The notes below the pieces were generated by a model. The model saw nothing but the letters and a program-made list of their open reading frames with translations. It did no database searches and was not told the DNA's origin. A stretch of DNA of 64,000 nucleotides, from the IMG/VR virus record IMGVR_UViG_3300026484_000110; one strand, written 5' to 3'. A program made the position numbers and the translations under genes. Of this stretch, positions 2,201 to 44,585 are shown in pieces (the first letter of the stretch is position 1; each line of letters begins with the position of its first letter). Origin of the DNA: a virus.

Positions 2201-2232
2201 GATGTAAACAAATTAAATAAAAGGAGTCTACT

Positions 2233-2805
2233 GTGAAAAACTTAGAAGTAATTTTAGGAAGTGATGTAGTTAATTTTAGTATTGTAGAGGAGGTCGAAAT
2301 GGAATTGAACAGAAGAGAAGAATTAAGACTCTTTATAAGTCTTAAGGAATTCGGGTATAAAAAATTATTAGGTCTTTTAAATCTTTTAAGACCAAATGGT
2401 AAAGAAGAAGTAATTGTAAAAGATTACTATTTGTTGGAAGATGATGGAAATACTAGATACAGAAGAAGACATTATCCAAATAAAAATGTGAAAGATGAAT
2501 ATTATCTAGTAAAAGGTTTTGGTGGTAATAAAACTACTAAACAAATCACAAGAGATGAATTCATAAACGGGTTGAAAGGTAAAAAAGCATGGAGAGTAAG
2601 AAAGGATGTAATTGTTGTTAGAAATTTCTGCGGTTTTAACGGCTGTGTAGAGTTGATGCTAGTAAATAACAAACTTTATTTCTCTATAGAGGTAGAAGCA
2701 GATAACTTATTCAAACCTATGGAGCAGTTAAGAGCGATTTCCGATATGTTAGATATAAAACCGGATATCACTACCGAAACAGTCTGGGAGTATTTCAGGA
2801 AGTAA
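2233..2805 (+). CDS. CYTH/triphosphate-tunnel-like protein (tentative)
   Basis: GTG start after AAGGAG. N-terminal REELRLF, internal TRYRRR and C-terminal SIEVE resemble CYTH ExExK, basic and ExE motifs. Confidence 0.4.
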   Translation: MKNLEVILGSDVVNFSIVEEVEMELNRREELRLFISLKEFGYKKLLGLLNLLRPNGKEEVIVKDYYLLEDDGNTRYRRRHYPNKNVKDEYYLVKGFGGNKTTKQITRDEFINGLKGKKAWRVRKDVIVVRNFCGFNGCVELMLVNNKLYFSIEVEADNLFKPMEQLRAISDMLDIKPDITTETVWEYFRK

Positions 2806-2816
2806 TTTCCTGAAAT
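2792..2816 (+). terminator. Intrinsic terminator
   Basis: ATTTCAGGAA/TTCCTGAAAT stem overlapping the stop codon, followed by a T-tract. Confidence 0.75.
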
Positions 2817-2889
2817 CTATTCTTTTTTCTTTTTATATTATTAATAAGAAGAGAAGTCAATTCTCGAAATCACGCATAAAGGATAGTAA

Positions 2890-3249
2890 ATGGATAAAAT
2901 TAAAGACATTAAAAATTATGACAAAATTGAAAAAATCTTAGGTGAAGAAAAGTTAGTTACAGTAGCAGATGAAATAGAAGAAATATTAAACCTGCATAAC
3001 AGATTAAGTAAACTAGAAAAAAGATTACAAACGTTACCGGATTGTGAGGAAGGTGACGAATGCTGGAATTATCAATTTGACATTAAAGTAGAGATTAATG
3101 AAATCAAATCAGATATCTCAGAAATCTTAGATAGAGATATTGATGACATAAAGTTATTTTTAGACCATAAACCTATTAACAAAAATGAAAGAGATATCAT
3201 TGACGAGTATATCGATCTCTATGAAAAAGATGAATTAATTGGACTATAG
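2890..3249 (+). CDS. Hypothetical acidic protein
   Basis: ORF track; preceded by a promoter-like motif; no motif recognised. Confidence 0.7.
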   Translation: MDKIKDIKNYDKIEKILGEEKLVTVADEIEEILNLHNRLSKLEKRLQTLPDCEEGDECWNYQFDIKVEINEIKSDISEILDRDIDDIKLFLDHKPINKNERDIIDEYIDLYEKDELIGL

Positions 3250-3282
3250 GCTAGATATTCTCTACCCTATGTCTTTTCTTTT

Positions 3283-4101
3283 TTAGTCACAGTCTATATC
3301 TTCTACTAAATCTCCTAATATTATTTTTATATCATAACCATTTTCTAAATAGTCCTTCATATACTTAGACATTCTATTTTTTATAACATCTTTCACATGG
3401 TGTCTATTAATATCCCATGCTGTTCTATTACCATATAATTTTCTTCTAGCTCTTTTACTCTTTATTTTTTCTACATTTCCAAACCATTTATTAGGATCAC
3501 AATTTTTTATTAAACCACAATATTTTCTTTCGTATCTAAAATATTTCCATCCACCATTATAAACAGAATCAGCAAACGCTATTCTGGTTTCTATTGGTAT
3601 ATTTTTACTAAACTTAATAAAGTTACTTTTCCATAATAAAATACCAGCTTTAATTTGTAAATCAGGACGTTCATAAACATTATTCCAATTTAATTCATGT
3701 AACTCTTTTGGAAAACGTTTTCTTAAATATTCAATTGTATCCCATTTTACTCTACCTGTTTTATTAAACACTCTTGTTAACTGAAAAAACCCTGCTCCCT
3801 CTTCTCTTTTAGTTTTTAATCTAGATTTAGGAGACCAACACCTTTTAGCCCAATAATTATTACCACACAATTTTACACAACTCTCATGTTCTATTAAAGC
3901 TGGAAAATAGAATGGATAATTAAAATCATTGCCCAATATTTTATATACTTCTTCATAAACTATGGGTAATAATTTTTTAGCTTTATCGGGTATGTAGGTT
4001 TTACTATCACAATTCTGGCCATATAAGGAAGTAACAACAGTCGTAGACAATACTAATAAAATAAACAATGATTTTTTTAAAAATATTTTTGGTTTATTCA
4101 T
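3283..4101 (-). CDS. Lytic transglycosylase (SLT-like), probable endolysin with N-terminal hydrophobic anchor
   Basis: IEHES (catalytic Glu), GAGFFQLT, VYNGG and PNKWFGNVE. Start moved to the SD-preceded ATG at 4101 (MNKPK), which is followed by a hydrophobic stretch. Confidence 0.75.
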   Translation of the reverse strand: MNKPKIFLKKSLFILLVLSTTVVTSLYGQNCDSKTYIPDKAKKLLPIVYEEVYKILGNDFNYPFYFPALIEHESCVKLCGNNYWAKRCWSPKSRLKTKREEGAGFFQLTRVFNKTGRVKWDTIEYLRKRFPKELHELNWNNVYERPDLQIKAGILLWKSNFIKFSKNIPIETRIAFADSVYNGGWKYFRYERKYCGLIKNCDPNKWFGNVEKIKSKRARRKLYGNRTAWDINRHHVKDVIKNRMSKYMKDYLENGYDIKIILGDLVEDIDCD

Positions 4102-4149: not shown

Positions 4150-4734
4150 TCATGAAGCATTATATTTCGTTAATAATTTTTTTACATTATCTATAGTCAT
4201 TTCAGCTACATCCATTCGATATGCTTCAGCAATAATAGATTCTACATCGTTATATCTTCCTTCTCTTATTAAAATACCCAATTTTACTCTAAAAGCTTCT
4301 ATCATTGCTACAAATTTTTTTATTGCATAATCATATTCCTTACCTGTAGTTATAATTAAATCTACTAATTTATCGGTAGTCATACCCGTTAATTCTGCTT
4401 CCCATTTTAATTCATTAGCATAACTACCATCTGTTTTATATTTTAATGCCATTTCGTATTTTTGTTCATATCTAAATAATTGGTCATTTGTTACTCTTTT
4501 ACCAGTTATTAGATTTCTAGCTTCAGATGTTTTTGTATCCGCCAATTTATCTACCTTTTGAAATAAATCAAATTGTTTAGTTTCATTATTGTACTTTTCT
4601 AATTCAGTCAATATTTCAGAATCAGTAGGCATTGTCCTTTCATCATTCCAGACAATCTCCTCTCCATTTAGTATTTCCATTTTAGGATCAGGAACCAATC
4701 TTTTTATCATTTCTATTTTTAACCAAAAATCCAT
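4150..4734 (-). CDS. Tail fibre assembly/chaperone-like protein
   Basis: IVWNDERTMPTDSEI and YEQKYEMA...EAELTGMTTDKLVDLI resemble phage tail-fibre-associated proteins; adjacent to the putative fibre gene. Confidence 0.5.
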   Translation of the reverse strand: MDFWLKIEMIKRLVPDPKMEILNGEEIVWNDERTMPTDSEILTELEKYNNETKQFDLFQKVDKLADTKTSEARNLITGKRVTNDQLFRYEQKYEMALKYKTDGSYANELKWEAELTGMTTDKLVDLIITTGKEYDYAIKKFVAMIEAFRVKLGILIREGRYNDVESIIAEAYRMDVAEMTIDNVKKLLTKYNAS

Positions 4735-4745
4735 TTTATATCTCC

Positions 4746-5489
4746 TTATCTATTTCTAAGTACTGTAAGATAAGTGGTATAACTATAACTATTACGACAA
4801 TCGTTATACCATTTAACATAACCATTTTCATTATACCAAATTCCCAAATACGCATACTTTTCATAGTCCCCGTTTGGCTCAGTGACGTCTGTTCTATCGC
4901 TTGCCCACCATGTGTTACTACCATCTATTACTTTCCATCCTTTCCTTCCCATTCCTTCACTATTTAATGGTATGTTGCTATGCCAGCACCTGGTACAGCA
5001 TCTGCCAGGTATATCATTGCCATCGTAATAAATACCCAATGGTCCCATAGCAGTAGGTTTACCAAGCGCTAATAAATATCTCCTAGCTAATTCATATTCT
5101 TCTCTACTATGTGGGCAGAATAACTCATAACCATCTTTACTAGCACTACTACCTATAGGATCGTAAGAATATCTAATCCTAGCACCATTTTCTACTAATC
5201 TAAAATCTACAATGTCGTCATTAGGTAAGATTACTTTTTTAAGTTGTTCAATATTTAAACCCTCCAGTAACTTAGCATTTAAAGCCTCTTTTACAACTAG
5301 ATTAGGCGCTACCTCATTTATTATCTCCTTTACATCATCACTTGTCAAAGTTTTACTATTTATCAAATCTGTTAAATCTTTTACAGCCTGACTAAATTTA
5401 TCTTTTAATTCATTATTAAGATTTTCATAACCAGTATTTATATTGTTTAGTTTAAGGTTTATTTCATTAATTAATTCCAAAATTGACAT
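4746..5489 (-). CDS. Putative tail fibre/receptor-binding protein with C-type-lectin-like C-terminus
   Basis: N-terminal coiled coil; Cys/Trp-rich C-terminal domain with EPNGD and WYND. Confidence 0.5.
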   Translation of the reverse strand: MSILELINEINLKLNNINTGYENLNNELKDKFSQAVKDLTDLINSKTLTSDDVKEIINEVAPNLVVKEALNAKLLEGLNIEQLKKVILPNDDIVDFRLVENGARIRYSYDPIGSSASKDGYELFCPHSREEYELARRYLLALGKPTAMGPLGIYYDGNDIPGRCCTRCWHSNIPLNSEGMGRKGWKVIDGSNTWWASDRTDVTEPNGDYEKYAYLGIWYNENGYVKWYNDCRNSYSYTTYLTVLRNR

Positions 5490-6036
5490 TTGATAACTCC
5501 TTTAATTTTAAATTTATTATATTAAAATTATGTAATAGATTATTGCCTAGATTTAAAATATCCTCAGGACTCTTATTAAAAAATATTATTTCAAATCTAG
5601 TTTTATATAATAAACCATAAAATCCGTTTTCCAACATTCCTGGTTCAACTTGTTCGTCCTTATAATAGACCGGGTAATCTGTTGTATTTAGTTTAACAGT
5701 AAGATAATCAGTATTCATTTCGTTGGTTTTAAACACAATAAAGTTGTTATTATTAAATATTTCTAATTTTAAACTTGTTCCATTTTTTTCTAAAATTAAA
5801 TTACTGTCTGTACCTACATTTTTATAATATTCTATAACTGGTTTACTACTACCAGCAGCACCGGTATTAGATAATATATTTATTAGCATAGCCACATTTT
5901 TAATTTTATATGTTTTTAACTGATTTTTACTATCTAATACCTGTATTGTTAATTCTTTTGGTTCTGTGGAAAATAAATCATCAATGTACTCATTCATTTT
6001 CATACTGACTTTATCTTCTAAATTCATTATCATCAT
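5467..6036 (-). CDS. Hypothetical protein, possibly tail-associated
   Basis: ORF track; co-oriented with and overlapping the fibre gene. Confidence 0.6.
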   Translation of the reverse strand: MMIMNLEDKVSMKMNEYIDDLFSTEPKELTIQVLDSKNQLKTYKIKNVAMLINILSNTGAAGSSKPVIEYYKNVGTDSNLILEKNGTSLKLEIFNNNNFIVFKTNEMNTDYLTVKLNTTDYPVYYKDEQVEPGMLENGFYGLLYKTRFEIIFFNKSPEDILNLGNNLLHNFNIINLKLKELSNVNFGIN

Positions 6037-6116
6037 TACTTAATCCTTATTCATCAACTTCTTTTCAACGAAACTTCAAGTTTTCTTGAAAAAACAACAT
6101 ATTAAGGAGAAAATTT

Positions 6117-7052
6117 ATGGAAATTTATAATTTAATAAAAGAAATAGAAACCAAAGAAACAGTAGGTTATGAAGACATTTCTGAGATATTGAGAAAATTA
6201 GATAATGCAATTAGTAACAAAATTAAGAATTTTTTAGATTTCATAAGGACTACTAAAATTATAGTAGATAACCTACATAGTTATAAAACTAAAATGTACA
6301 ATATTAAAGATTTGCAAAAAATAAAAATAAAATTATTAAAAGCACTTAACAAAAATGAAATTGTACCAAATATTGTATTAAGAAGAAAAGTACCAATAAT
6401 TTTAGGTTTAAATAAAACATTACCAGAATTAGTAACAATACTGTCTACAAGTAGTAAAGTGTTAAACCAATATGAGAATATAGTAAAAGATCTAGAAGAT
6501 AGAATAAGTAAAACAATTATAAAAAACGATATTAGTCTATTTTTACCTAACAAAAGAGAAGTATCTGAAATAGCAAAAACTGTAAGTGAAGTAGGATTGG
6601 TAATAGAATCAATTACTGATAAAAAACAGATGACCGATATGGTGGAAATGCGTAAAGTAATTAACAACATAACTAAACTACCTGAAATAATAAATATGCT
6701 TTTAAAGCTAGGTGAAGTCTACAGAATGGAAAGAGTAGAAACCATGATAGACAGATTAAACGATGTAGTACCTAATGTTAAACTATTAATAGATAGACTG
6801 TTAAATGAAAACAACAATGACGAAAAAATAAAGAATGAAATAATCACATATTTAAAGACTGTGGCTGAAATAACTACAATAGTAGGTATGTTGGAATTAC
6901 TATACCTACAAACAGTAGATATGACAATAGCTATAATAAAAACAGTATTAGCACCTATAGATGCTAGAAAATTAGGCAAACAAAAACTAAAATCAGTAGA
7001 AGTAGAGCAATCCATAATACAAAAAATTAAATCAAAATTATTTAGTAAATAG
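6117..7052 (+). CDS. Putative virion/head protein (helical)
   Basis: AAGGAG SD; N-terminal VGYE matches the G-x-E prohead protease motif. Confidence 0.5.
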   Translation: MEIYNLIKEIETKETVGYEDISEILRKLDNAISNKIKNFLDFIRTTKIIVDNLHSYKTKMYNIKDLQKIKIKLLKALNKNEIVPNIVLRRKVPIILGLNKTLPELVTILSTSSKVLNQYENIVKDLEDRISKTIIKNDISLFLPNKREVSEIAKTVSEVGLVIESITDKKQMTDMVEMRKVINNITKLPEIINMLLKLGEVYRMERVETMIDRLNDVVPNVKLLIDRLLNENNNDEKIKNEIITYLKTVAEITTIVGMLELLYLQTVDMTIAIIKTVLAPIDARKLGKQKLKSVEVEQSIIQKIKSKLFSK

Positions 7053-32714: not shown

Positions 32715-35700
32715 ATGGATTTAAGATTTAAAGAATGGTATAGAAAATACGGTACTAGGAAAATGACTGACTTTGTCACTCCGAAATTGATTAATTTAGA
32801 TAATATTTTCTACCCTAGAAATACTATTATACATTTTTATAATATGGATAGTAACATTTTCCCAACAACAAATATTTCGTATTTAAGAAATATTAAAAAA
32901 GGAATAGTTACAAACTTAGTAGATTATAATAAACCAGTATTTGATGTTAAAAAGAAAACAGTATCGGAAACTACATTTAATAATAATCTAAAAAGAAGAT
33001 TTACGGATTTTAAAATTGTACCACCTAGTAAATTAAACAAACAAATAGAAAACAATCATAGTCTAATTAGGAAATATAATATAATTTACAATTATAGTTT
33101 TATAAATCAATTCTATAGGTATAAAAACTTATATTTAGACGAATACTATAAATTTAGAAATATAGGTAACACAATATTTTCGAATATAATAAACATTAAC
33201 AATATGAATTTTAAACCTAGTGAACAACCTAATCACTTTGTAATAATGAATTTACCATCTACATTTTATAGTAGACAAATCTTATTAAAATACATACATC
33301 AAAAATGGACTAATAGACAGTTATTAAATCTATTTTTCGATTATAACAGATTGAACATTTTAGAACTATTTAAAGCAATAATTAAAGAATTTAAAATAGA
33401 AACTAAATATGACCTAATAAGGAAAAAAAGAGATTTGGACAGTGTGAATATTCTATTTGTCCTTGAAGATAAAGGTATTATAATAAATTTAGGGATTTTA
33501 TTCAGCATGCTTAAAACATATCCCGAACTAGATTACAATACAAAAGTAGAACCTGATAAAATGTTTAAATTATTACACTATATGTTACATGCGATGTATG
33601 TATTACCTGGTTTTACCGTAGATGAGATTGAAACAGGTAAACATGAAGAAAAAATAAAAGATATACTAAATATAAAAGAAAAAACTAATTTATCAAACAT
33701 AGTAGATAATGAAGATAATAGTAAAGTATATCTGGTAGAGGAAATCGATGATAATACAGTAATAGACGATGAAAAGGAAATAGATAAGATAATAGAAAAA
33801 GATGAAGAAACCGAATTAGACATAGATGAAGAGATAAAGACTATTCCCAAATACAAACATATAAAAGAAATGCTCACTACTGATGATAATCCTGCTACTG
33901 ATGTAGATAAAACATTAGAAGCTATAGCAAAGGACATGGATTTAGATAATAAAAAATTAACGAAGATAAAGAAACAATTTGAAGAAGTCTTAAATACTCC
34001 TTCGCCGTTTGGTGATGAAAATACTATAAAAGACTTACTAGAAATAAGTGAACATGAAATAGAAATAAAGAGTGAAGAAAAGAAATTACCAAATGTAAAA
34101 GTAGCATTCGATAAAAAGATGCTAGAAGACCCTATTACAACTATAGATAAAAAATATATAAAACATGTTTATAAAAAAGATATCACTAGGACTGTGTTCA
34201 GTCTACAAAGAGCAGGTATGCTAGTTAAAGATTATAAAGTGGAAAAAGAAGATTCTATATTAGGAGAATATGAAATACATGAAATTACTTTTACAGATAT
34301 TAAAAAAGGTACTCATAAAGTTAAATTAAAACTACCTACAATAAACGAAGACGGTGTTTATAGTATGTCTGGTAACAGATATTTATTACGAAAAAGTAGA
34401 CAAGATCTGCCTATTAAAAAAATTGCTTTTAATAGAGTAAGTCTGTCGAGTGCATATGGTAAACTATTTATAGATAAAGCACCTCTTAAAAAATACGATA
34501 TAGGTTTTAGTATTAAAAAACAATTGACTAAAATGCTAGATAATAATAAAATTAGAAACTTAGTTTTAGGTAACGAAATTCCGCCTGATTTAAAGTTACC
34601 CATAGAATATACATGGTTTATGAGATATATAAAATCTTTTAGACTAAATAACATATTTTTTAATTTCGATTATGAAAATAGAGAGAAGATAGTAATAGAG
34701 AAAGGTCTAAAATTAGAAGATATTGAAAAGGATGGTTATGTTATCTGCGGTACAATAGATAACGACATATTAGTAATAGATAAAGATAATGTACTATACA
34801 GGTATAAAAATAAAAAGTATATTAAAATAGGTAAACTGATTGATGTTGTAGGTTTGGATAAAAAGAAACTAACTAGAGATTATTCAATGGTAAAGATTTA
34901 TAAAAATTATACACCAGTAGTATTTATGCTAATGTTTTACTTAGGATTAGACAATATGTTTAAAATACTAAATATAGACTATGTGAAATATGAAGGTAAT
35001 AAACAAAATAAAGATGAAAATACAATTGTATTTAAAACCAAATTCAGTACCTATTTCGTTAAACCAAAAAATGAAAAAGAAATGATGTTATTAAAAGGAT
35101 TAACACATTGGAAAAAAGAATGTAAAAGTTATCCAGATAATGTATTTAACGATAAAGATTTGATGCTAAGCTTTTTCAGAGATTTAAAAATACCTTTAAA
35201 TGTAATTACTGAAATAGAGTTATTAGATAATCTTTTTATAGATCCAGTTACAGCAAATACATTAAAACAAATGAAAGAACCTACTACGTTTACTGGTTTA
35301 TTATTAAGAGCTAATGAATTGCTGGCTGATGATAATTATATACATCCACAGAGTTTAAAAGGTTATGTTATCAAAGGTTATGAAAGAATTCCTCAGATGG
35401 TATATAACAAAATGGTAGAAGCTATAAGAAATAAAAAGAATGAAGAATTCTTTGGTAGAAATAGATTAGTATTTGATCCTTATAGTGTATGGAGAATACT
35501 AAATGAAGATAGTGCTAGTGTATTAGAAGACGACTTAAATCCTATAATATATCTAAAACAAAAAGAAGATGTCACTTATACTGGTTTTCTAGGTAGAAAA
35601 AAGGAATCAATGAGTAAGAGTACTAGAGAATTGCATCCTGATGATGTAGGCGTAATCTCTGAAGGTCATAAAGATAGTGGTGATGTCGGTATTTCGGCAT

Positions 35701-37285
35701 ACTTATCCGCTAATCCAATAATAAAAAATTTAAGAGGAATGAAAGGTGAAGAAAAAGAATTAAGTTTTAGTAACATTTTAAGTACCTCTGCATTATTAGC
35801 ACCATTTAGTACAACAGATGACTCAAAGAGGTTAACTTTAGCCTCACTAGTTGGAAACAACTAGGAAAATTAAGGCGGTTAATTCGGGGGAACTCCTAAT
35901 CTAATAAAAGAGGTGATTTTGGTTAGGACAATCCCGAGCCAAGCTCCTATCTGGTTACGACTGGATAGGTAGAAGGTGTAACGACTATCCCGTGAGGGAG
36001 TAGGGTGCAAGCCACTGGCACTCGAAAAGCCGCCCACCCTAACGTAAAGTCGAGGGTGAAGATATAGTCTGGTCTCTATGGTAACATAGAGCAGAAGTTA
36101 ATGATTATGGGTATAAAGAAAAGTTTTATATCCATAACATTAACTTCGGGTATAGGAGTGGCGTCCTATACTGAACACATCGTAAATTTTATAAATATCC
36201 AAAATTCACACGTAATACCCATGAAAAATGCTACAGTTTATCCTGTAAGGACTGGTTACGACTCTGTATTAGCTTATAGATTACCTAAAAAGTTTATAGG
36301 ATTTGCTATTGATGATGGTATAGTAGAAACAGCTAGTAAAAATAAAATAATAGTTAATTACAAAAATAAAGGTAAGAAAACTTATATATTTAAAGATTGG
36401 AATAGTAAAGAAGAATCAAATAGTAGTTTTATACACAGAATGAAATCTAATGTTGTAAAAGGGCAAACAGTTAAACATGGAGATGTTTTATATTACGATA
36501 GTAGTTTCTTCGAACCTGATTTCTTCGATAAAACAAAAGTAACTTATAAACCATATCTTACAGTAACAACAGCTTTAATGGAAATAAATGAAACATTTGA
36601 AGATAGTAGTGCTATATCTAAAAAGATAGCTGATCTAGCAGAAATAGAACAAGTTAAAAGCAAATCAGTAATTTTAGATTGTACAGATGAAATTAGTAAT
36701 GTATTAAAAATAGGAGATAAAGTAAATCCTAACACCGCATTAATGACGATAGGTACTAGTATACTGGATGAAACTGGTAAATTATCAGAAGAGGCTTTAG
36801 ATATTTTACAAGGATTTATAAAGACTACTCCTAAAGCTAAAGTAAAAGGTGAAATAATAGATGTAAAAGTATTTTACCATTGTGAAAAAGAAAACATGAG
36901 TGAGTCAATAAGAGAAATAGTAGAATATGCTGAGAAATTTTTAGTAGATAAAAATACTGGTAAAAAATATACTGGTAAGGTAGATAGTAGTTATAGTATA
37001 AAAGGAAAACCTCTAGATCCAGGTAAAATAGAAATTAAATATTACTTTAGATTAGGATCTAAAATGGTAACAGGTGATAAAGCTATTTTTGGTAACCAGT
37101 TAAAAACTACAGTAGGTGAAATATTTAATTATCCGATTGTATCTGACTCTGGTAAAGAAATAGATGCATTATTTAGTGCTAGAGCAATTTACGCTAGGAT
37201 AGTTAACAGTCCTAGTCTAATGGGTACTACTGCTAGATTATTAAGAGAAATCAGTAAAAAAGCTGCTGATATGTATCTGGGATGA
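32715..37285 (+). CDS. Virion RNA polymerase beta subunit (phiKZ gp178-like), spliced from 32715-35832 and 36183-37285, 1406 aa
   Basis: RpoB-like motifs HPDDVG, TTDDSKR, GDKAIFGNQLKT and IDALFS. Removing the intron joins two track ORFs in frame as DDSKR-L-NFINIQNSH. Confidence 0.88.
35833..36182 (+). mobile_element. Group I intron (350 nt, no ORF) in the virion RNAP beta gene
   Basis: P1: exon GAGGU pairs with GCCUC, with the U.G wobble at the splice site. Core elements: P AATTCGGGGGAAC, Q AATCCCGAGCCAAG, R GTAACGACTA, S AAGATATAGTCT. Terminal G at 36182; P10 UUUA/UAAA. Confidence 0.9.
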
Positions 37286-39041: not shown

Positions 39042-40820
39042 GTGCTAAATAAACTAATAACAACATTACCTAATGGAAAGTTTAATACCGATCTAGAGCT
39101 ATCACTAACTACCCATACCAGTGACTGCGATTATCTAATAAAAGATTTAAATACCTCAGAATTAGCAGTTTTTGATAAAAATGGTAAAAAGGTAATGACT
39201 ATATCTAAAACAAAATATCCGAAATTTGCTAATTGGATAAAATGGGAAAGACCACAGTTTGAACTTTATGAAACAACAACGGAAACAAAACAACCAGATT
39301 TAAACAACAATTCCCAAGAAATTATTGTAAAAAATGAATTTTTAAATAGTCTAGAAGATATATTAAAAGAAACAAACAAAAGCATTTGTTTAACTTCTGA
39401 AGGTGAATTATGTTTTACGGACAAAGAAGACCAGATGGATTATATACCAATACCTGTTAGAAATCAACTGTTAAAAATGGATTATGAAGAATTCAAAAGA
39501 CAGGTAGAATATATTAGAACAGAAATAGCAAGAACAAGTAAAAGCAGAAAATACACTGTTTATCTAAAGACAATAAAAGATTATTATCTAAGATTTATTA
39601 TTAAAGCTAAATCATTAAACTACTGCCTATTGAATATTTCTGACTACTTAGCGTATAAACGTAAAGATGATGATTTTTTAGCAATTGATTTAATATCAAA
39701 ATTACCACTTAACGCAGAATATCTTCTAAAAGAAACTGAAAAACGTGATTTTATTCTGTATAGAATAAACCCTGAATTTGATTCTAACAGTAAAGGAATA
39801 AAAATTATTGAATCCGATACTGGAAAAAGAATTGGTATAAAAACTACAGAAGATTGGTGGAATAATCTTAAAGAATTAAAAGAAACATTATACGAAGAAG
39901 GAGTAAAAATGAATTTCAAAAATAAGGACGAAGCAATCGACAAACTCTATAAAGTATTAAGAGATACAAATACATTTCTAGATTTGGACTTAGAGGATTG
40001 TAAAATAGGCGCTAGGATAAACAATCATGGAAATATGGACCATTATATATCTGGTAATTTTGCAAACTTCTTTGTAACATTGAACAATGAACAAGCTATA
40101 AAATTAGTGGAGACTATAATTCCTATAATTCAACGTGAGTTTGATCCAGAGCATACTGTTACAACTAACGTATGTCTAGTTACAAGCGTATTGCCTGATT
40201 TAAATTACTGTTATGAGCAACCTAACAACAAGGAATTACCAGAAATGGAAAATTTAATACTTTCAGAAATTAAAGTAAAAGACGGATACAAATATGAAAC
40301 TTACGTGTCCCACGATGGAAAAAGAAAATTTATAGCAAAATACAAATTAGAAGAGTTTAAAGAAATAGAAACCAACATAACAAACATTTACAGTAAATTT
40401 AAAGAAAATAAAAAACTAACTAATGAAGAGAACGGATATGTGATCCAATACATCGAAAACAAAATTTCGAATAAAAAATCAATAAGTAATGAAGAAATGA
40501 GACTATTTATAATTGCTATTTATTCTAGAATTTGCTGGATATTAAATGCAGTAAAGACATTTCCTGATCTATCTTCTAAACTAGATGAGGTGTTTGATAC
40601 AGTAAATGAATACTTAAATACTGCCAAAAAAGTAGGTTACCTAAAAGATTTCCATACGGTTCTATTTAATGGGATTGAACTTTATATGGCAGACGAGAGT
40701 AAAGAAGACCATATGAACTTGGTAGATGATTTACATTTAGTATTTACTATGTTACTATCAAAGCTTACTGTGGCAACAACCGAAGAATATCAAAAATCAA
40801 ATACAGTACCAGAGGGATAA
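39042..40820 (+). CDS. Large hypothetical protein; likely true start 38959 with a 1-nt frameshift
   Basis: The reading frame stays open upstream to ~38958. The SD-preceded ATG at 38959 is out of frame by one base across an A5 run. A second in-frame SD plus ATG lies at 39909. Confidence 0.65.
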   Translation: MLNKLITTLPNGKFNTDLELSLTTHTSDCDYLIKDLNTSELAVFDKNGKKVMTISKTKYPKFANWIKWERPQFELYETTTETKQPDLNNNSQEIIVKNEFLNSLEDILKETNKSICLTSEGELCFTDKEDQMDYIPIPVRNQLLKMDYEEFKRQVEYIRTEIARTSKSRKYTVYLKTIKDYYLRFIIKAKSLNYCLLNISDYLAYKRKDDDFLAIDLISKLPLNAEYLLKETEKRDFILYRINPEFDSNSKGIKIIESDTGKRIGIKTTEDWWNNLKELKETLYEEGVKMNFKNKDEAIDKLYKVLRDTNTFLDLDLEDCKIGARINNHGNMDHYISGNFANFFVTLNNEQAIKLVETIIPIIQREFDPEHTVTTNVCLVTSVLPDLNYCYEQPNNKELPEMENLILSEIKVKDGYKYETYVSHDGKRKFIAKYKLEEFKEIETNITNIYSKFKENKKLTNEENGYVIQYIENKISNKKSISNEEMRLFIIAIYSRICWILNAVKTFPDLSSKLDEVFDTVNEYLNTAKKVGYLKDFHTVLFNGIELYMADESKEDHMNLVDDLHLVFTMLLSKLTVATTEEYQKSNTVPEG

Positions 40821-40935
40821 ACTATCCCTCTGGTATTTCTTTTTTCCAATCTTTTTTTAAGTATATATTATTAATTTGGTCTAGGTAGTTTCTAGACTAA
40901 TTGTGATCACAATTATTCTACTAAAAGGAGGCCCA

Positions 40936-43900
40936 ATGCCTGTTGTACAACGTATAAAAAATCTGGACGAATACTTTCACGCTACAGAAAGAAAGTTGTT
41001 GCTGAATAATTTTAGTCTTTTAGAGACTAATCCAGAAGACCTAGTAAAACTCCTCTATACTAAATACGAGGATGAAATCACATTAATACCACAATGTGAG
41101 TGTGGTAATTATAAAGGAGCTTATCTATTAGGTAAAGTGTGTCCTAAATGCAATACCACAGTAATCAAGACGTTTGATGAAATTAAACCATTACTCTGGA
41201 TTGAACAATTTAGAGATGATTTACCATTTTTAAATCCTCACTTTTGGACACAGATGCGGTATCTATTATCCAGAAAAATAGATTGCGTAAGATGGTTAGG
41301 TGATACATCATACAATCCACCAGGAGTACCTGCATTTATGCAAACTATTAAAGAATTAATAGGAGGTAGAGGATATAAAAATCTAATTTCCAATATAGAA
41401 AAGATTTTACTATACGTAGCCAATAATAGTCTTTTCAGAGCTAATGGTAAAGATGTTAAAGCTAAAAAGCTATTAAAAGAATATCAGGAGAATAAAGATA
41501 AACTGTTTTCCAGTTATCTACCACTGATAAATAAAAGACTATTTGTAATGGAAGTCACTAATAAGGGTAATTATACTACATCCATGTTAGCCGATACAAT
41601 AGACATAGCATTATTTGCTATCAAGTTAGCTAATCTGGATAAAAACAGTAAAAAGGTAGAAAACGGTACAGCTACCCTAATAGCTAATTTAAGTAACTTA
41701 TTTAACAAGTATGTAAAAGAAAAATTAGCTGGTAAAAAAGGTATGGTAAGAAAACATATTTATGGTAGTAGATCCCATTTTACATTCAGAGCAGTAATTA
41801 CGTCATTACCATCTACTGCTGACTATGATGAATTATGGGTACCGTGGACAATAGGAGTAACAGCATTTAGACCGCATCTGTTAAACAAACTGTTAAAAAG
41901 AGGATTTACCTATAAGAAAGCTAGTAGACTGTTATTTAATTCAGTAAACAAGTATGATCCACTAATAGACGAGCTCTTAATCGAATTAATAAAAGAGAGT
42001 CCTTATAAAGGAATACCTATATTGTTTAACAGAAATCCAAGCCTTCTTCAAGGTTCAATTCAGCTACAATATATAACCAAATTCAAAAAGGATGTTAGAG
42101 ATAAAACTATCAGCGTAAGTATGCTAGTAATAAAGGCGCCAAACGGTGATCCATTGACTACCCGTTAAACTTAATAAATTTTATTATTATGACTCCTTAT
42201 ATTGAATATTTAAAAAAGGAGTTAAGAATGAAAACAAAAATCAAAAAACAATTTATAAAATACCCAGAGATTCACAAATACCCAAAAGGTTTAGAATGGT
42301 TAAAGGATGCTATAAAATACGTTCCTGCCAAAATAAGACAAGGCAATGGTCCGTATGAAATAGTTCGCATACCGATGTTTGACGCACCTGTTGTATTTTG
42401 CAGTATAAAAACAAGAAAAGAATATGCTGTTGTCCCAATAGCGCCTAGATATGTCGTGGATAAAGTTGGTAATGTTTATGACCTACTAACAAAAACCAAA
42501 CTAAAAACACATGGTCATAACAGCGAATATGAATATGTCGTAATCACAACACAAACACATCCCCAGTACAGAACAACGGTGCACCGCCTTATGGCTTATG
42601 CGTGGTTACCAAACAACGACTTTGTTACAGATTACATTGTGGACCATAAAAATAATGACAAAAAGGACAATCGTTTAGAAAACATTCACTGGACTACTAT
42701 GGAACAGAATTCTGCTAACGTACATAGTAGAACAAACCTAAAATTAGGTATGTATGTGTTAACAAATGTGCTAGATAAAAAGATATGGTTTTGCGATAAC
42801 TTAAACAGAGTGAGTGAAATATTAGGATTGAGTAAATCCACCATATCCGAGAAAAAGACACCATCTTGGTTTAACAAGACATCTAATTCAGAGACAGAAC
42901 CTGATGAGTTATATTATCTAACAGATGACAATAGTTACAGACAATATCTCATGGATCCCAGTTTAATAGATTTACCATGGGGTGTGATTGTTAAAAACAA
43001 GGAAACTGGTGAATTAGAGTTCTATAACAATAAGACTAAATTATGGAGAAAATTGACTGGTGAAAAAGGATACTTATATAAAGATTCTGACTTATTGGAC
43101 GTCTTAAAAGACCATGAAAAGTATGAGTTATTTAAACTACACAAAAAGCAGTCTAAGGAACCAGTGAAAGTCAAAAACTTGGTTACAGGTGAAGTAAAAG
43201 AATTTAATGGTATAAAACCGGCTAAAAAGCTTTTAAAGATAAGTACTACTAAGTTAGCAGAATTTCTAAACGATGACAAGTGTTATAACATAAATGGCTG
43301 GGTGCTATGGAAAAATGGTAAATGGTGTATGGATGACTTAATTAATTATAGTAGAAATACACCTGTATTGGTAGAATTTAAAGATGGAACAAAAAAGGAA
43401 TTCAATGGTATACGGGAGGCAGCTAGACATCTTAATGTAAATCAAAAGACTATTATTAACTTTATGAAAGGTAAGAATGCTCCTATAATAGATTCTCTGG
43501 GTATTAAAAGAATTGTTAAAGTTTAACGGGTCGAGGTCACCCTAGGGTAGTAATACTCTAGCAAAATACTCCCCTAACTGCGGGAACCGTGTAAAAGCTA
43601 TGGCTACCACTCATACCGGGAAACCGAGTATGATACTCATCCCAGTAATGGAGGTGATGAGCATGGTGAAAACGTCATAGTGTTGCGGGATCGACGCAGC
43701 GAAGTCCCTACGTCTTCTATAGATATGGGATATGTTCAGAGGCCACCGAAAGCTGCGACTATGTCGAAAGACATAGTAATAGTGAGGGTAAGGTAAGACT
43801 GCCCGCTGGTAGTGTGACTACTGGTAAAGCGAGTAGGGTACCATCTATATAGATGGGAAACGGGGAGCATCCGACTGCCTAAGGGATGAATTGTCCTATG

Positions 43901-44585
43901 GTAAGGGATGAAGATATGGTCCGGGTACAATGTACTCGTTCGACGGTTAATGTTGGCTGTCCTAGAGTAGGAATACTCTAGTCAAAAACCCTCCTAATTG
44001 CGGAGACATCCTAAAGCTAACGAGTACTAACTTATCTGGGAAACTAGATAAGGGCATGGAGAGGCGAGTGCTCCATGGTATAGTAAAAAGCTCGTTAGTA
44101 TGGGACAATCCGCAGCGAAGCACCTACGTCCTATTGGATATGGTGTGTGTTCAACGACTGTCGAAAGGATAGCTATTCTGGAAACGGAATAGTGAAAACC
44201 GAGTAGAGTAGGACTCAAGTGAGTTCGAAACGGAGGGCACCCGACTGCCTAAGGGATAAAATATCCTATGGTAAAGGGTGATGGTGTAGTCTGGTCTCTA
44301 GTGAAAGCTAGAGCTGCGGGTAATGCCGCGGGACAGGAGTAACGACCCTGTCTGAACATCACGGACGAGATGAATGCCACAATATTGCTAGACAATGAAA
44401 TGGTGAGACTAGCAGATACATTTAGTCCTGAGTTCAATATTGTGGATTTAGATTATTTTAAGGTAAATAAAAATCTATATCTACCATCTAGTATTATTGC
44501 TACGTTATCTAATTATTTACATAATGAAGATAACAATAAGGTAGATAAAGATCCAGTATTTGAAAAATTGGTATCTACGGGTTAA
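40936..44585 (+). CDS. Non-virion RNA polymerase beta' N-terminal subunit (phiKZ gp55-like), spliced from 40936-42150, 43939-43947 and 44364-44585, 481 aa
   Basis: Zinc motif CECG...CPKC, KKGMVRKHIYGSR and FNRNPSL. The splice product reads APNGD-FDG-DEMN, reconstituting the catalytic motif. Confidence 0.9.
42191..42223 (+). promoter_or_regulatory. Hairpin sequestering the HNH ribosome-binding site
   Basis: ACTCCTT(42192-98) is complementary to AAGGAGT(42216-22); ATG at 42228. Confidence 0.7.
42228..43526 (+). CDS. Intron-encoded HNH homing endonuclease with NUMOD1/IENR1-like repeats
   Basis: VHRLMAYAW...VDHKNNDKKDNRLENIHW (I-HmuI-type). C-terminal repeats PVKVKNLVTGEVKEFNGI and PVLVEFKDGTKKEFNGIREAARHL. 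Confidence 0.92.
   Translation: MKTKIKKQFIKYPEIHKYPKGLEWLKDAIKYVPAKIRQGNGPYEIVRIPMFDAPVVFCSIKTRKEYAVVPIAPRYVVDKVGNVYDLLTKTKLKTHGHNSEYEYVVITTQTHPQYRTTVHRLMAYAWLPNNDFVTDYIVDHKNNDKKDNRLENIHWTTMEQNSANVHSRTNLKLGMYVLTNVLDKKIWFCDNLNRVSEILGLSKSTISEKKTPSWFNKTSNSETEPDELYYLTDDNSYRQYLMDPSLIDLPWGVIVKNKETGELEFYNNKTKLWRKLTGEKGYLYKDSDLLDVLKDHEKYELFKLHKKQSKEPVKVKNLVTGEVKEFNGIKPAKKLLKISTTKLAEFLNDDKCYNINGWVLWKNGKWCMDDLINYSRNTPVLVEFKDGTKKEFNGIREAARHLNVNQKTIINFMKGKNAPIIDSLGIKRIVKV
43939..43947 (+). CDS. 9-nt micro-exon encoding F-D-G of the RNAP catalytic motif
   Basis: TTCGACGGT lies between the terminal G of intron 1 and the P1 of intron 2; it is the only in-frame source of FDG. Confidence 0.88.
43948..44363 (+). 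mobile_element. Group I intron (416 nt, no endonuclease ORF)
   Basis: P1: GACGGU pairs with GCUGUC. P3 CCCTCC/GGAGGG; P AATTGCGGAGAC; Q AATCCGCAGCGAAG; R TTCAACGACTG; S GGTGTAGTCT; terminal G at 44363, followed by GAC GAG ATG. Confidence 0.9.

Follow-up and report, generated by a model that had tools for sequence, protein, structure and literature searches.

Two tandem group I introns predicted around a nine-nucleotide micro-exon in the catalytic-loop codons of a phage RNA polymerase gene

The stretch of DNA analyzed here comes from a large, uncultured phage. This sequence, IMG/VR record IMGVR_UViG_3300026484_000110 (64,000 nucleotides, hereafter the window), carries on its plus strand a gene for the N-terminal part of the beta' subunit (beta'-N) of a phiKZ-type RNA polymerase (RNAP). 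The DFDGD loop of RNAP beta' is the Mg-binding catalytic loop, and its codons in this gene (40936-44585) appear to be interrupted by two group I introns. Exon 1 (40936-42150, plus strand) comprises 405 codons and ends in ...K-A-P-N-G-D, its last codons being ...GCG CCA AAC GGT GAT with U42150 as the final base. The ATG at 40936 is also the start of database protein P0001, and an in-frame GTG at 40903, upstream of it, is an alternative. The micro-exon TTCGACGGT (43939-43947, plus strand) reads TTC GAC GGT, i.e., F-D-G in frame, and its final base is U43947. Exon 3 (44364-44585, plus strand) begins with GAC GAG ATG AAT (D-E-M-N) and holds 73 codons and the stop. Counted from ATG 40936 the three exons sum to 1215+9+222 nt, and once joined they form an open frame of 481 codons followed by a stop that reads ...KAPNGDFDGDEMNATILLDN...; the peptide spanning the junctions would be APNGDFDGDEMN, and the corresponding junction in spliced complementary DNA GGTGAT-TTCGACGGT-GACGAG. 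The NGDFDGD motif exists only in the spliced product; its three Asp codons are located on three separate exons, and the micro-exon, which encodes the middle Asp of DFDGD, is required to rebuild NGDFDGDEMN. Gene callers yield instead a truncated open reading frame (ORF) of 410 amino acids and a second one of 71 amino acids, losing the catalytic Asp-Gly.

Comparison with other phages assigns the gene to a known family. A tblastn search with exon 1 matched 318 phage records with phiKZ-type beta' subunits (30-36% identity, 93-99% query cover, E down to 1e-67), among them PhiPA3 gp054, which its RefSeq note equates with phiKZ gp055. The Pfam model RNA_pol_Rpb1_2 is matched weakly by exon 1 alone (15.3 bits). 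Exon 3 aligns with the C-terminal ~75 residues of intronless homologues. Across NADFDGD, no gap interrupts the alignment of the spliced protein with the intronless PhiPA3 gp054, AgentSmith gp102 (Bacillus phage) and FLC9 gp381 (Burkholderia phage), and NGDFDGD superposes exactly on the NADFDGD of these homologues. By these alignments the gene is a homologue of phiKZ gp55 and PhiPA3 gp054, the non-virion RNAP's N-terminal beta' subunit. A megablast search with the locus gave no match among 50,697 phage records, and an IMG/VR search for relatives with a single protein found none.

Intron 1 (42151-43938, plus strand, 1788 nt, last base G43938) has a core, 43515-43943, that matches the Rfam family RF00028 (Intron_gpI) with 41.6 bits (E 2.5e-9), and its joining segments J8/7 and J6/7 agree nearly base for base with the Rfam consensus. 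Its guide sequence (43530-43541, plus strand) lies directly 5' of helix P2 (43542-43561) and has two halves. GUCACC (43536-43541) pairs with GGUGAU at the end of exon 1 (42145-42150) as P1, with all six bases matched and U42150·G43536 at the splice site, while GUCGAG (43530-43535) pairs with UUCGAC of the micro-exon as P10, again 6/6. These splice-site pairings, like those of intron 2, were placed by hand and then checked by a hexamer scan. The scan gave three further P1 candidates for intron 1, each with at least one extra G·U pair, and among the candidates only 43536-43541 adjoins P2 and the P10 partner. Since the guide follows the ORF carried by the intron, that ORF is located in the P1 loop.

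The ORF (42189-43526, plus strand, 445 codons) matches Pfam HNH_3 (33.4 bits, 3.4e-08), NUMOD1 (36.5 bits, 5.2e-09) and I-HmuI_NUMOD-like (27.4 bits, 2.4e-06), all above the cut-offs, and is predicted to encode an HNH intron homing endonuclease of the I-HmuI-like, NUMOD1-bearing kind. Its true start is probably the ATG at 42219 rather than 42189, since a Shine-Dalgarno sequence, AAGGAGT, stands just before it and the gene call in a related phage (L004, see below) begins at the equivalent ATG. The sequence ACTCCTT within 42189-42222 can pair with this AAGGAGT, the same arrangement being present in L004, and a hairpin may mask the ribosome-binding site of the endonuclease. Together with two structured stretches of higher G+C content (43527-43938 and 43948-44363), this ORF takes up the space between the exons.

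Intron 2 (43948-44363, plus strand, 416 nt, last base G44363) is devoid of an ORF and matches the whole RF00028 model with 74.7 bits (E 1.5e-18), above the gathering score of 50. Its guide GCUGUC (43956-43961), the sole such hexamer in the intron and directly 5' of the P2 hairpin, pairs with GACGGU of the micro-exon (43942-43947) as P1, 6/6, with U43947·G43956 at the splice site. The two introns consequently have a claim on the same bases, given that 43942-43944 (GAC) of the micro-exon are common to the P10 of intron 1 (43939-43944) and the P1 of intron 2 (43942-43947). Two hairpins were drawn by hand in the segment that joins the 5' strand of P7 to the 3' strand of P3, at 44173-44192 and 44211-44226 (P7.2), with reference to the P7.1/P7.2 criterion of subgroup IA; P7.2 covaries, and the first hairpin lies outside the pair count given below. 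Three predicted 6-bp guide pairings fixed just 5' of P2, combined with an in-frame F-D-G, are not accounted for by chance.

Introns 1 and 2 are related (73% identity pairwise, 62-64% in a six-way alignment), and the micro-exon could be skipped, either as the main outcome or in a regulated manner. The introns would then act as a unit, or intron 2 would reach back to the end of exon 1 and treat it as a distal 5' splice site, giving an in-frame NGD-DEMN without F-D-G, a catalytically dead or regulatory isoform. The frame is indeed kept when the 9 nt are skipped, the introns share 62-73% identity, and the guide of intron 2 matches the end of exon 1 at five of six positions in register. Precedents exist as well: where similar group I introns enclose a short exon, its skipping has been documented in Twort orf142 (23 nt), in Coxiella 23S (34 nt) and in engineered Tetrahymena pairs (PMC10136302), and skipping has been reported for a gene of phage SIOphi (PMC11878797). 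However, the energies favor the assigned partners. Each guide pairs 6/6 with its own exon, at -6.8 kcal/mol for intron 1 and -6.0 kcal/mol for intron 2, whereas the duplex of the intron 2 internal guide sequence with exon 1 reaches just -0.9 kcal/mol, and the intron 1 guide pairs with the exon of the other intron at 4/6 and -3.9 kcal/mol. In addition, the P10 partner GUCGAG of intron 1 fits the micro-exon 6/6 and the start of exon 3 at just three central positions, and the conserved micro-exon supplies precisely those residues that the enzyme requires. We thus regard skipping as improbable, and inclusion of the micro-exon by two splicing events as the better reading.

The core structure was also assessed by covariation in six introns, namely both of the window, both of L004 and those of two further relatives (L007 and L012), with P2-P8 drawn on intron 2. 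In the 69 core pairs counted, 89.8% of the cells hold a pair, as opposed to 36-42% with the partners slid, and both-sided changes occur in 23 of the 69. The helices P2, P3, P4, P6, P7, P7.2 and P8 are 93-100% paired, with P3 at 97%, P7 at 100% and P7.2 at 100%, the latter with changes at all six of its pairs. Covariation in this set supports the structure and does not prove it, as there are six sequences only, one of which served to draw the structure. Together with the Rfam matches it supports the view that both intervening sequences are group I introns, probably self-splicing. Outside the window/L004 pairs, pairwise identity among the six introns is 55-67%, too flat to decide on an ancestral insertion site.

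The preliminary description of this DNA had proposed, from the letters and their ORFs, exons ending or starting at 42150 (GGT GAT), 43939-43947 (TTC GAC GGT) and 44364 (GAC GAG ATG AAT), a U·G pair in each P1 and a terminal G in each intron, and all of these hold; both U·G pairs prove to be part of 6-bp helices and the terminal bases are G43938 and G44363. Its two tandem group I introns are borne out by Infernal-type Rfam matches of 74.7 and 41.6 bits together with covariation, and its in-frame NGDFDGDEMN, with each catalytic Asp on its own exon, by the open 481-amino-acid frame and the three Asp codons across three exons. Continuous alignment of that product with beta' homologues had been set beforehand as a test, and no gap was found against PhiPA3, AgentSmith or FLC9. 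The expectation that gene callers would miss the layout was likewise correct, as judged by the 410- and 71-amino-acid ORFs they call.

Homologues were searched among 5.8 billion proteins and contigs were fetched for several relatives. The same layout as in the window was found in one 185-kb phage represented by three records (L004, L015 and L048), where GGTGAT, an intron with HNH gene, TTCGACGGT, a second intron and GACGAA follow one another; the micro-exon is identical in L004 and L015, and intron 2 of L004 scores 79.3 bits. Identity between the window and L004 is 93.9% in the intron 1 core, 95.7% in intron 2 and 84.7% in the HNH ORF, versus 67.2% in exon 1, 66.2% in exon 3 and 54.8% in the next downstream gene. 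The greater identity of the introns fits a recent joint transfer of both. Other relatives carry one intron. L007 and L008 have the site-A intron alone, followed by TAT GAC GGC GAC GAA ATG AAT (Y-D-G-D-E-M-N), and L007 keeps the guide GUCACC with the exon GGUGAU. In L012 the site-B intron stands alone and without ORF; its P1, GAUGGU/GCCAUC, is compensatory when set against that of the window, and the intron ends in CUGAACAUAACG, followed by GAU. The intron of L013 and of L009 is located past the third Asp.

Two more relatives appear to have two introns around a very short exon. In L005, introns of 45.7 and 41.6 bits flank a probable exon of 11 nt, assigned on the basis of reading frame and splice-site bases only; a P1 helix was sought for both L005 introns and none was found, and a degenerate 63-amino-acid remnant stands where the endonuclease would be. 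In L064 (ENA ERZ27258030, a 215-kb contig), two group I cores of 79.2 and 45.3 bits in 4700-6800 flank ~13 nt, GACTATGATGGGG, which would encode D-Y-D-G-(D). In L064 the frame is kept only with junctions that leave G, not the usual U, as the final base (-1) of both 5' exons, and both introns start with AAAATT. These ~11-nt and ~13-nt stretches are candidates for further micro-exons in two-intron layouts. L065 has introns at RN/P and NA/D (a slash marks the point of insertion). In L065 a gene for an IS605 OrfB / Cas12f1-like TnpB (2209-3378) was also observed between the chimallin and beta'-N genes. Two leads from the search were discarded: the IMG/VR match L014 is a chance match, and the metagenome pattern GTACANTGTACTCG-N9-TAAT returned 48 loci, only one of which (L048, the L004 phage) is real, the pattern being too loose.

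Many homologues are ~405-435 amino acids long with frames that end in or beside the motif, compared with ~480-495 for intact ones. In the 120 closest homologue clusters, about 44 are intact and about 70 (~60%) appear interrupted, at six or more positions, of which five lie within ~24 nt of the motif and one ~50 codons upstream; this count is indirect, from ORF ends, and the loci checked are those that were fetched. ORF ends of P0001-P0120 and the loci L005, L009, L010, L012, L013, L065 and L066 indicate insertion at RN/P, N/A (phiKZ), N[AG]/D, NxD/, DxDG/, within the third Asp codon and at DxDGD/. These sites cluster in the catalytic loop at a spacing of one codon or less, and the coding stretch for the loop looks like a hot spot of intron insertion.

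Considering all the above, we believe it highly probable that two related group I introns, 9 bp apart within the N-G-D-F-D-G-D codons of the beta'-N gene, are both spliced to rebuild the loop, the pair probably spreading as one cassette. In intron 1, the guide past the 1.3-kb HNH gene would bind the end of exon 1, P10 would align the micro-exon and GAU would be spliced to UUC; in intron 2, the last six bases of the micro-exon would be bound as P1 and GGU spliced to GAC. The active catalytic loop would then be encoded only by the doubly spliced messenger RNA. Because the P10 of intron 1 and the P1 of intron 2 share GAC, they cannot fully coexist, and the reactions are therefore probably sequential, in either order. 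As regards mobility, intronless alleles would be the cleavage target of the intron 1 HNH enzyme, and intron 2, being 9 bp off, would be carried along by co-conversion.

Several points weigh against this reading. Splicing, its order and the co-mobility of the introns are deduced from DNA sequence. The P1 of intron 1 must close over 1.39 kb, given that the guide is downstream of the 5' splice site and past the ORF, the P10 of intron 2 is weak (~3 bp), and the higher identity of the introns could partly stem from constraint on the ribozymes and not from transfer. The spliced-junction 23-mer is absent from IMG/VR, as is expected for DNA collections. Moreover, the core score of intron 1 (41.6) is below the Rfam gathering score of 50, the reason being that its P1 is split by the ORF. 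A core under this threshold could also belong to a decaying pseudogene, in which splicing of one intron or of both has been lost and the polymerase is provided by another copy or is dispensable, and the L005-type relatives with their endonuclease remnant point in the same direction. Nevertheless, every core helix is intact and shows compensatory changes, J8/7 and J6/7 are nearly identical to the Rfam consensus, the exons are open and conserved, the layout has been retained in L004, where exon identity to the window is down to 67%, and no second copy of the subunit was seen in the 64-kb window. Decay is in our opinion very unlikely.

A wider scenario may be put forward tentatively, and we consider it possible but doubtful. 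The ~24 nt encoding N-x-D-F-D-G-D would be a contested homing site, where rival endonucleases act at single-codon spacing and resident introns destroy the target of their rivals, micro-exons of 9 to ~13 nt being the result. Intron 2, lacking an ORF, would be kept by travelling with intron 1 and by shielding against site-B/site-C nucleases of co-infecting phages, and the overlap of P10 and P1 would impose ordered splicing on an essential enzyme.

Elsewhere in the window, a third group I intron without ORF is located at ~35833-36190 (Rfam 100.2 bits, E 2.9e-26 over 35823-36091). It interrupts a gene of RNAP beta type, called as the ORFs 32715-35864 and 36101-37285, immediately behind ...T-D-D-S-K-R; an exon of this gene has 35% identity to jumbo-phage genes annotated as 'RNA polymerase beta subunit', and a second polymerase gene of the window thus seems to need splicing. 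An Rfam scan of the whole 64-kb window at the gathering threshold returned zero matches, although the hits of 100.2 and 74.7 bits, both exceeding the 50-bit cut-off, were found by narrower scans. The empty result is a filter effect and not absence, and pipelines using the default Rfam scan would overlook all three introns of the window. Directly upstream of the beta'-N gene, a 592-amino-acid ORF (39042-40820) stands where PhiPA3 and phiKZ have chimallin. Its assignment as chimallin by synteny is unsupported, as neither a Pfam hit nor BLASTP similarity to the chimallin of a relative was found, and formation of a nucleus is not claimed.

Among known systems, the closest is phiKZ itself. Introns in phiKZ gp55 have been cited (PMC11512511), and in our analysis its gp55/gp56/gp56.1 region reads KAPN, then an intron with the gp56 HNH gene (75.6 bits), then ADFDGDQLN, in line with the preliminary description, which held that RNAP genes of this type can carry group I introns. 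The gene family and intron family are the same as in the window, the introns end in CUGAACAAUACG (phiKZ) and CUGAACAUCACG (here), and in both cases the ribozyme core is separated from the 5' splice site by an HNH ORF and the insertion is beside the catalytic loop. However, phiKZ has one intron, after the Asn codon, and all three Asp on one exon, whereas two introns inside the motif and a 9-nt exon are predicted here. The intron in PhiPA3 gp210, the virion RNAP beta gene, is another HNH-bearing group I intron in a jumbo-phage RNAP gene, directly after conserved catalytic Asp residues, and the intronless allele, when present in a co-infecting phage, is attacked by the nuclease of this intron (Birkholz et al., 2024, PMC11620839). 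It differs in that it is a single intron in another subunit, with a competitive function shown by experiment.

Very short exons between adjacent group I introns are also on record. Staphylococcus phage Twort has three introns of group I in its orf142, where an exon of 23 nt separates two similar IA2 introns and exon skipping takes place (Landthaler & Shub, 1999, as cited in PMC10136302). The likeness is a very short exon flanked by tandem related introns in a phage protein gene, and the difference is that the exon has 23 nt in Twort, while in the window it has 9 nt, encodes catalytic residues and serves overlapping P10 and P1 pairings. In placozoan mitochondrial cox1, a 1-bp micro-exon between two group IB introns (PMC5436844) similarly restores an essential residue. 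That case is organellar, of another subgroup and backed by RNA sequencing, whereas the phage micro-exon is long enough for a full P1 and a P10 partner.

The preliminary description could not confirm that the arrangement was undescribed, and parts of it are indeed on record. Short exons in phage genes that contain two or three introns have already been described (PMC11878797, PMC10136302), as have group I introns with HNH genes beside catalytic residues of jumbo-phage RNAP genes (PMC11620839; PMC11512511 for phiKZ gp55); the phiKZ intron lies two codons upstream, and micro-exons are known in mitochondria and in Twort. On the other hand, a 9-nt phage exon, one catalytic Asp per exon, the P10/P1 overlap on one micro-exon and the density of insertion sites across the motif were not found described in the literature searched. 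A 9-nt exon that one ribozyme uses for P10 and the following one as its P1 substrate would offer a compact natural test of how tandem group I introns avoid interference, and of exon skipping. Phage introns are known to behave in this way, and the predicted locus is an example of unusual density. Competition between homing endonucleases has been demonstrated experimentally for PhiPA3 and phiKZ, and jumbo-phage polymerases offer in their catalytic loop a good place to study it.

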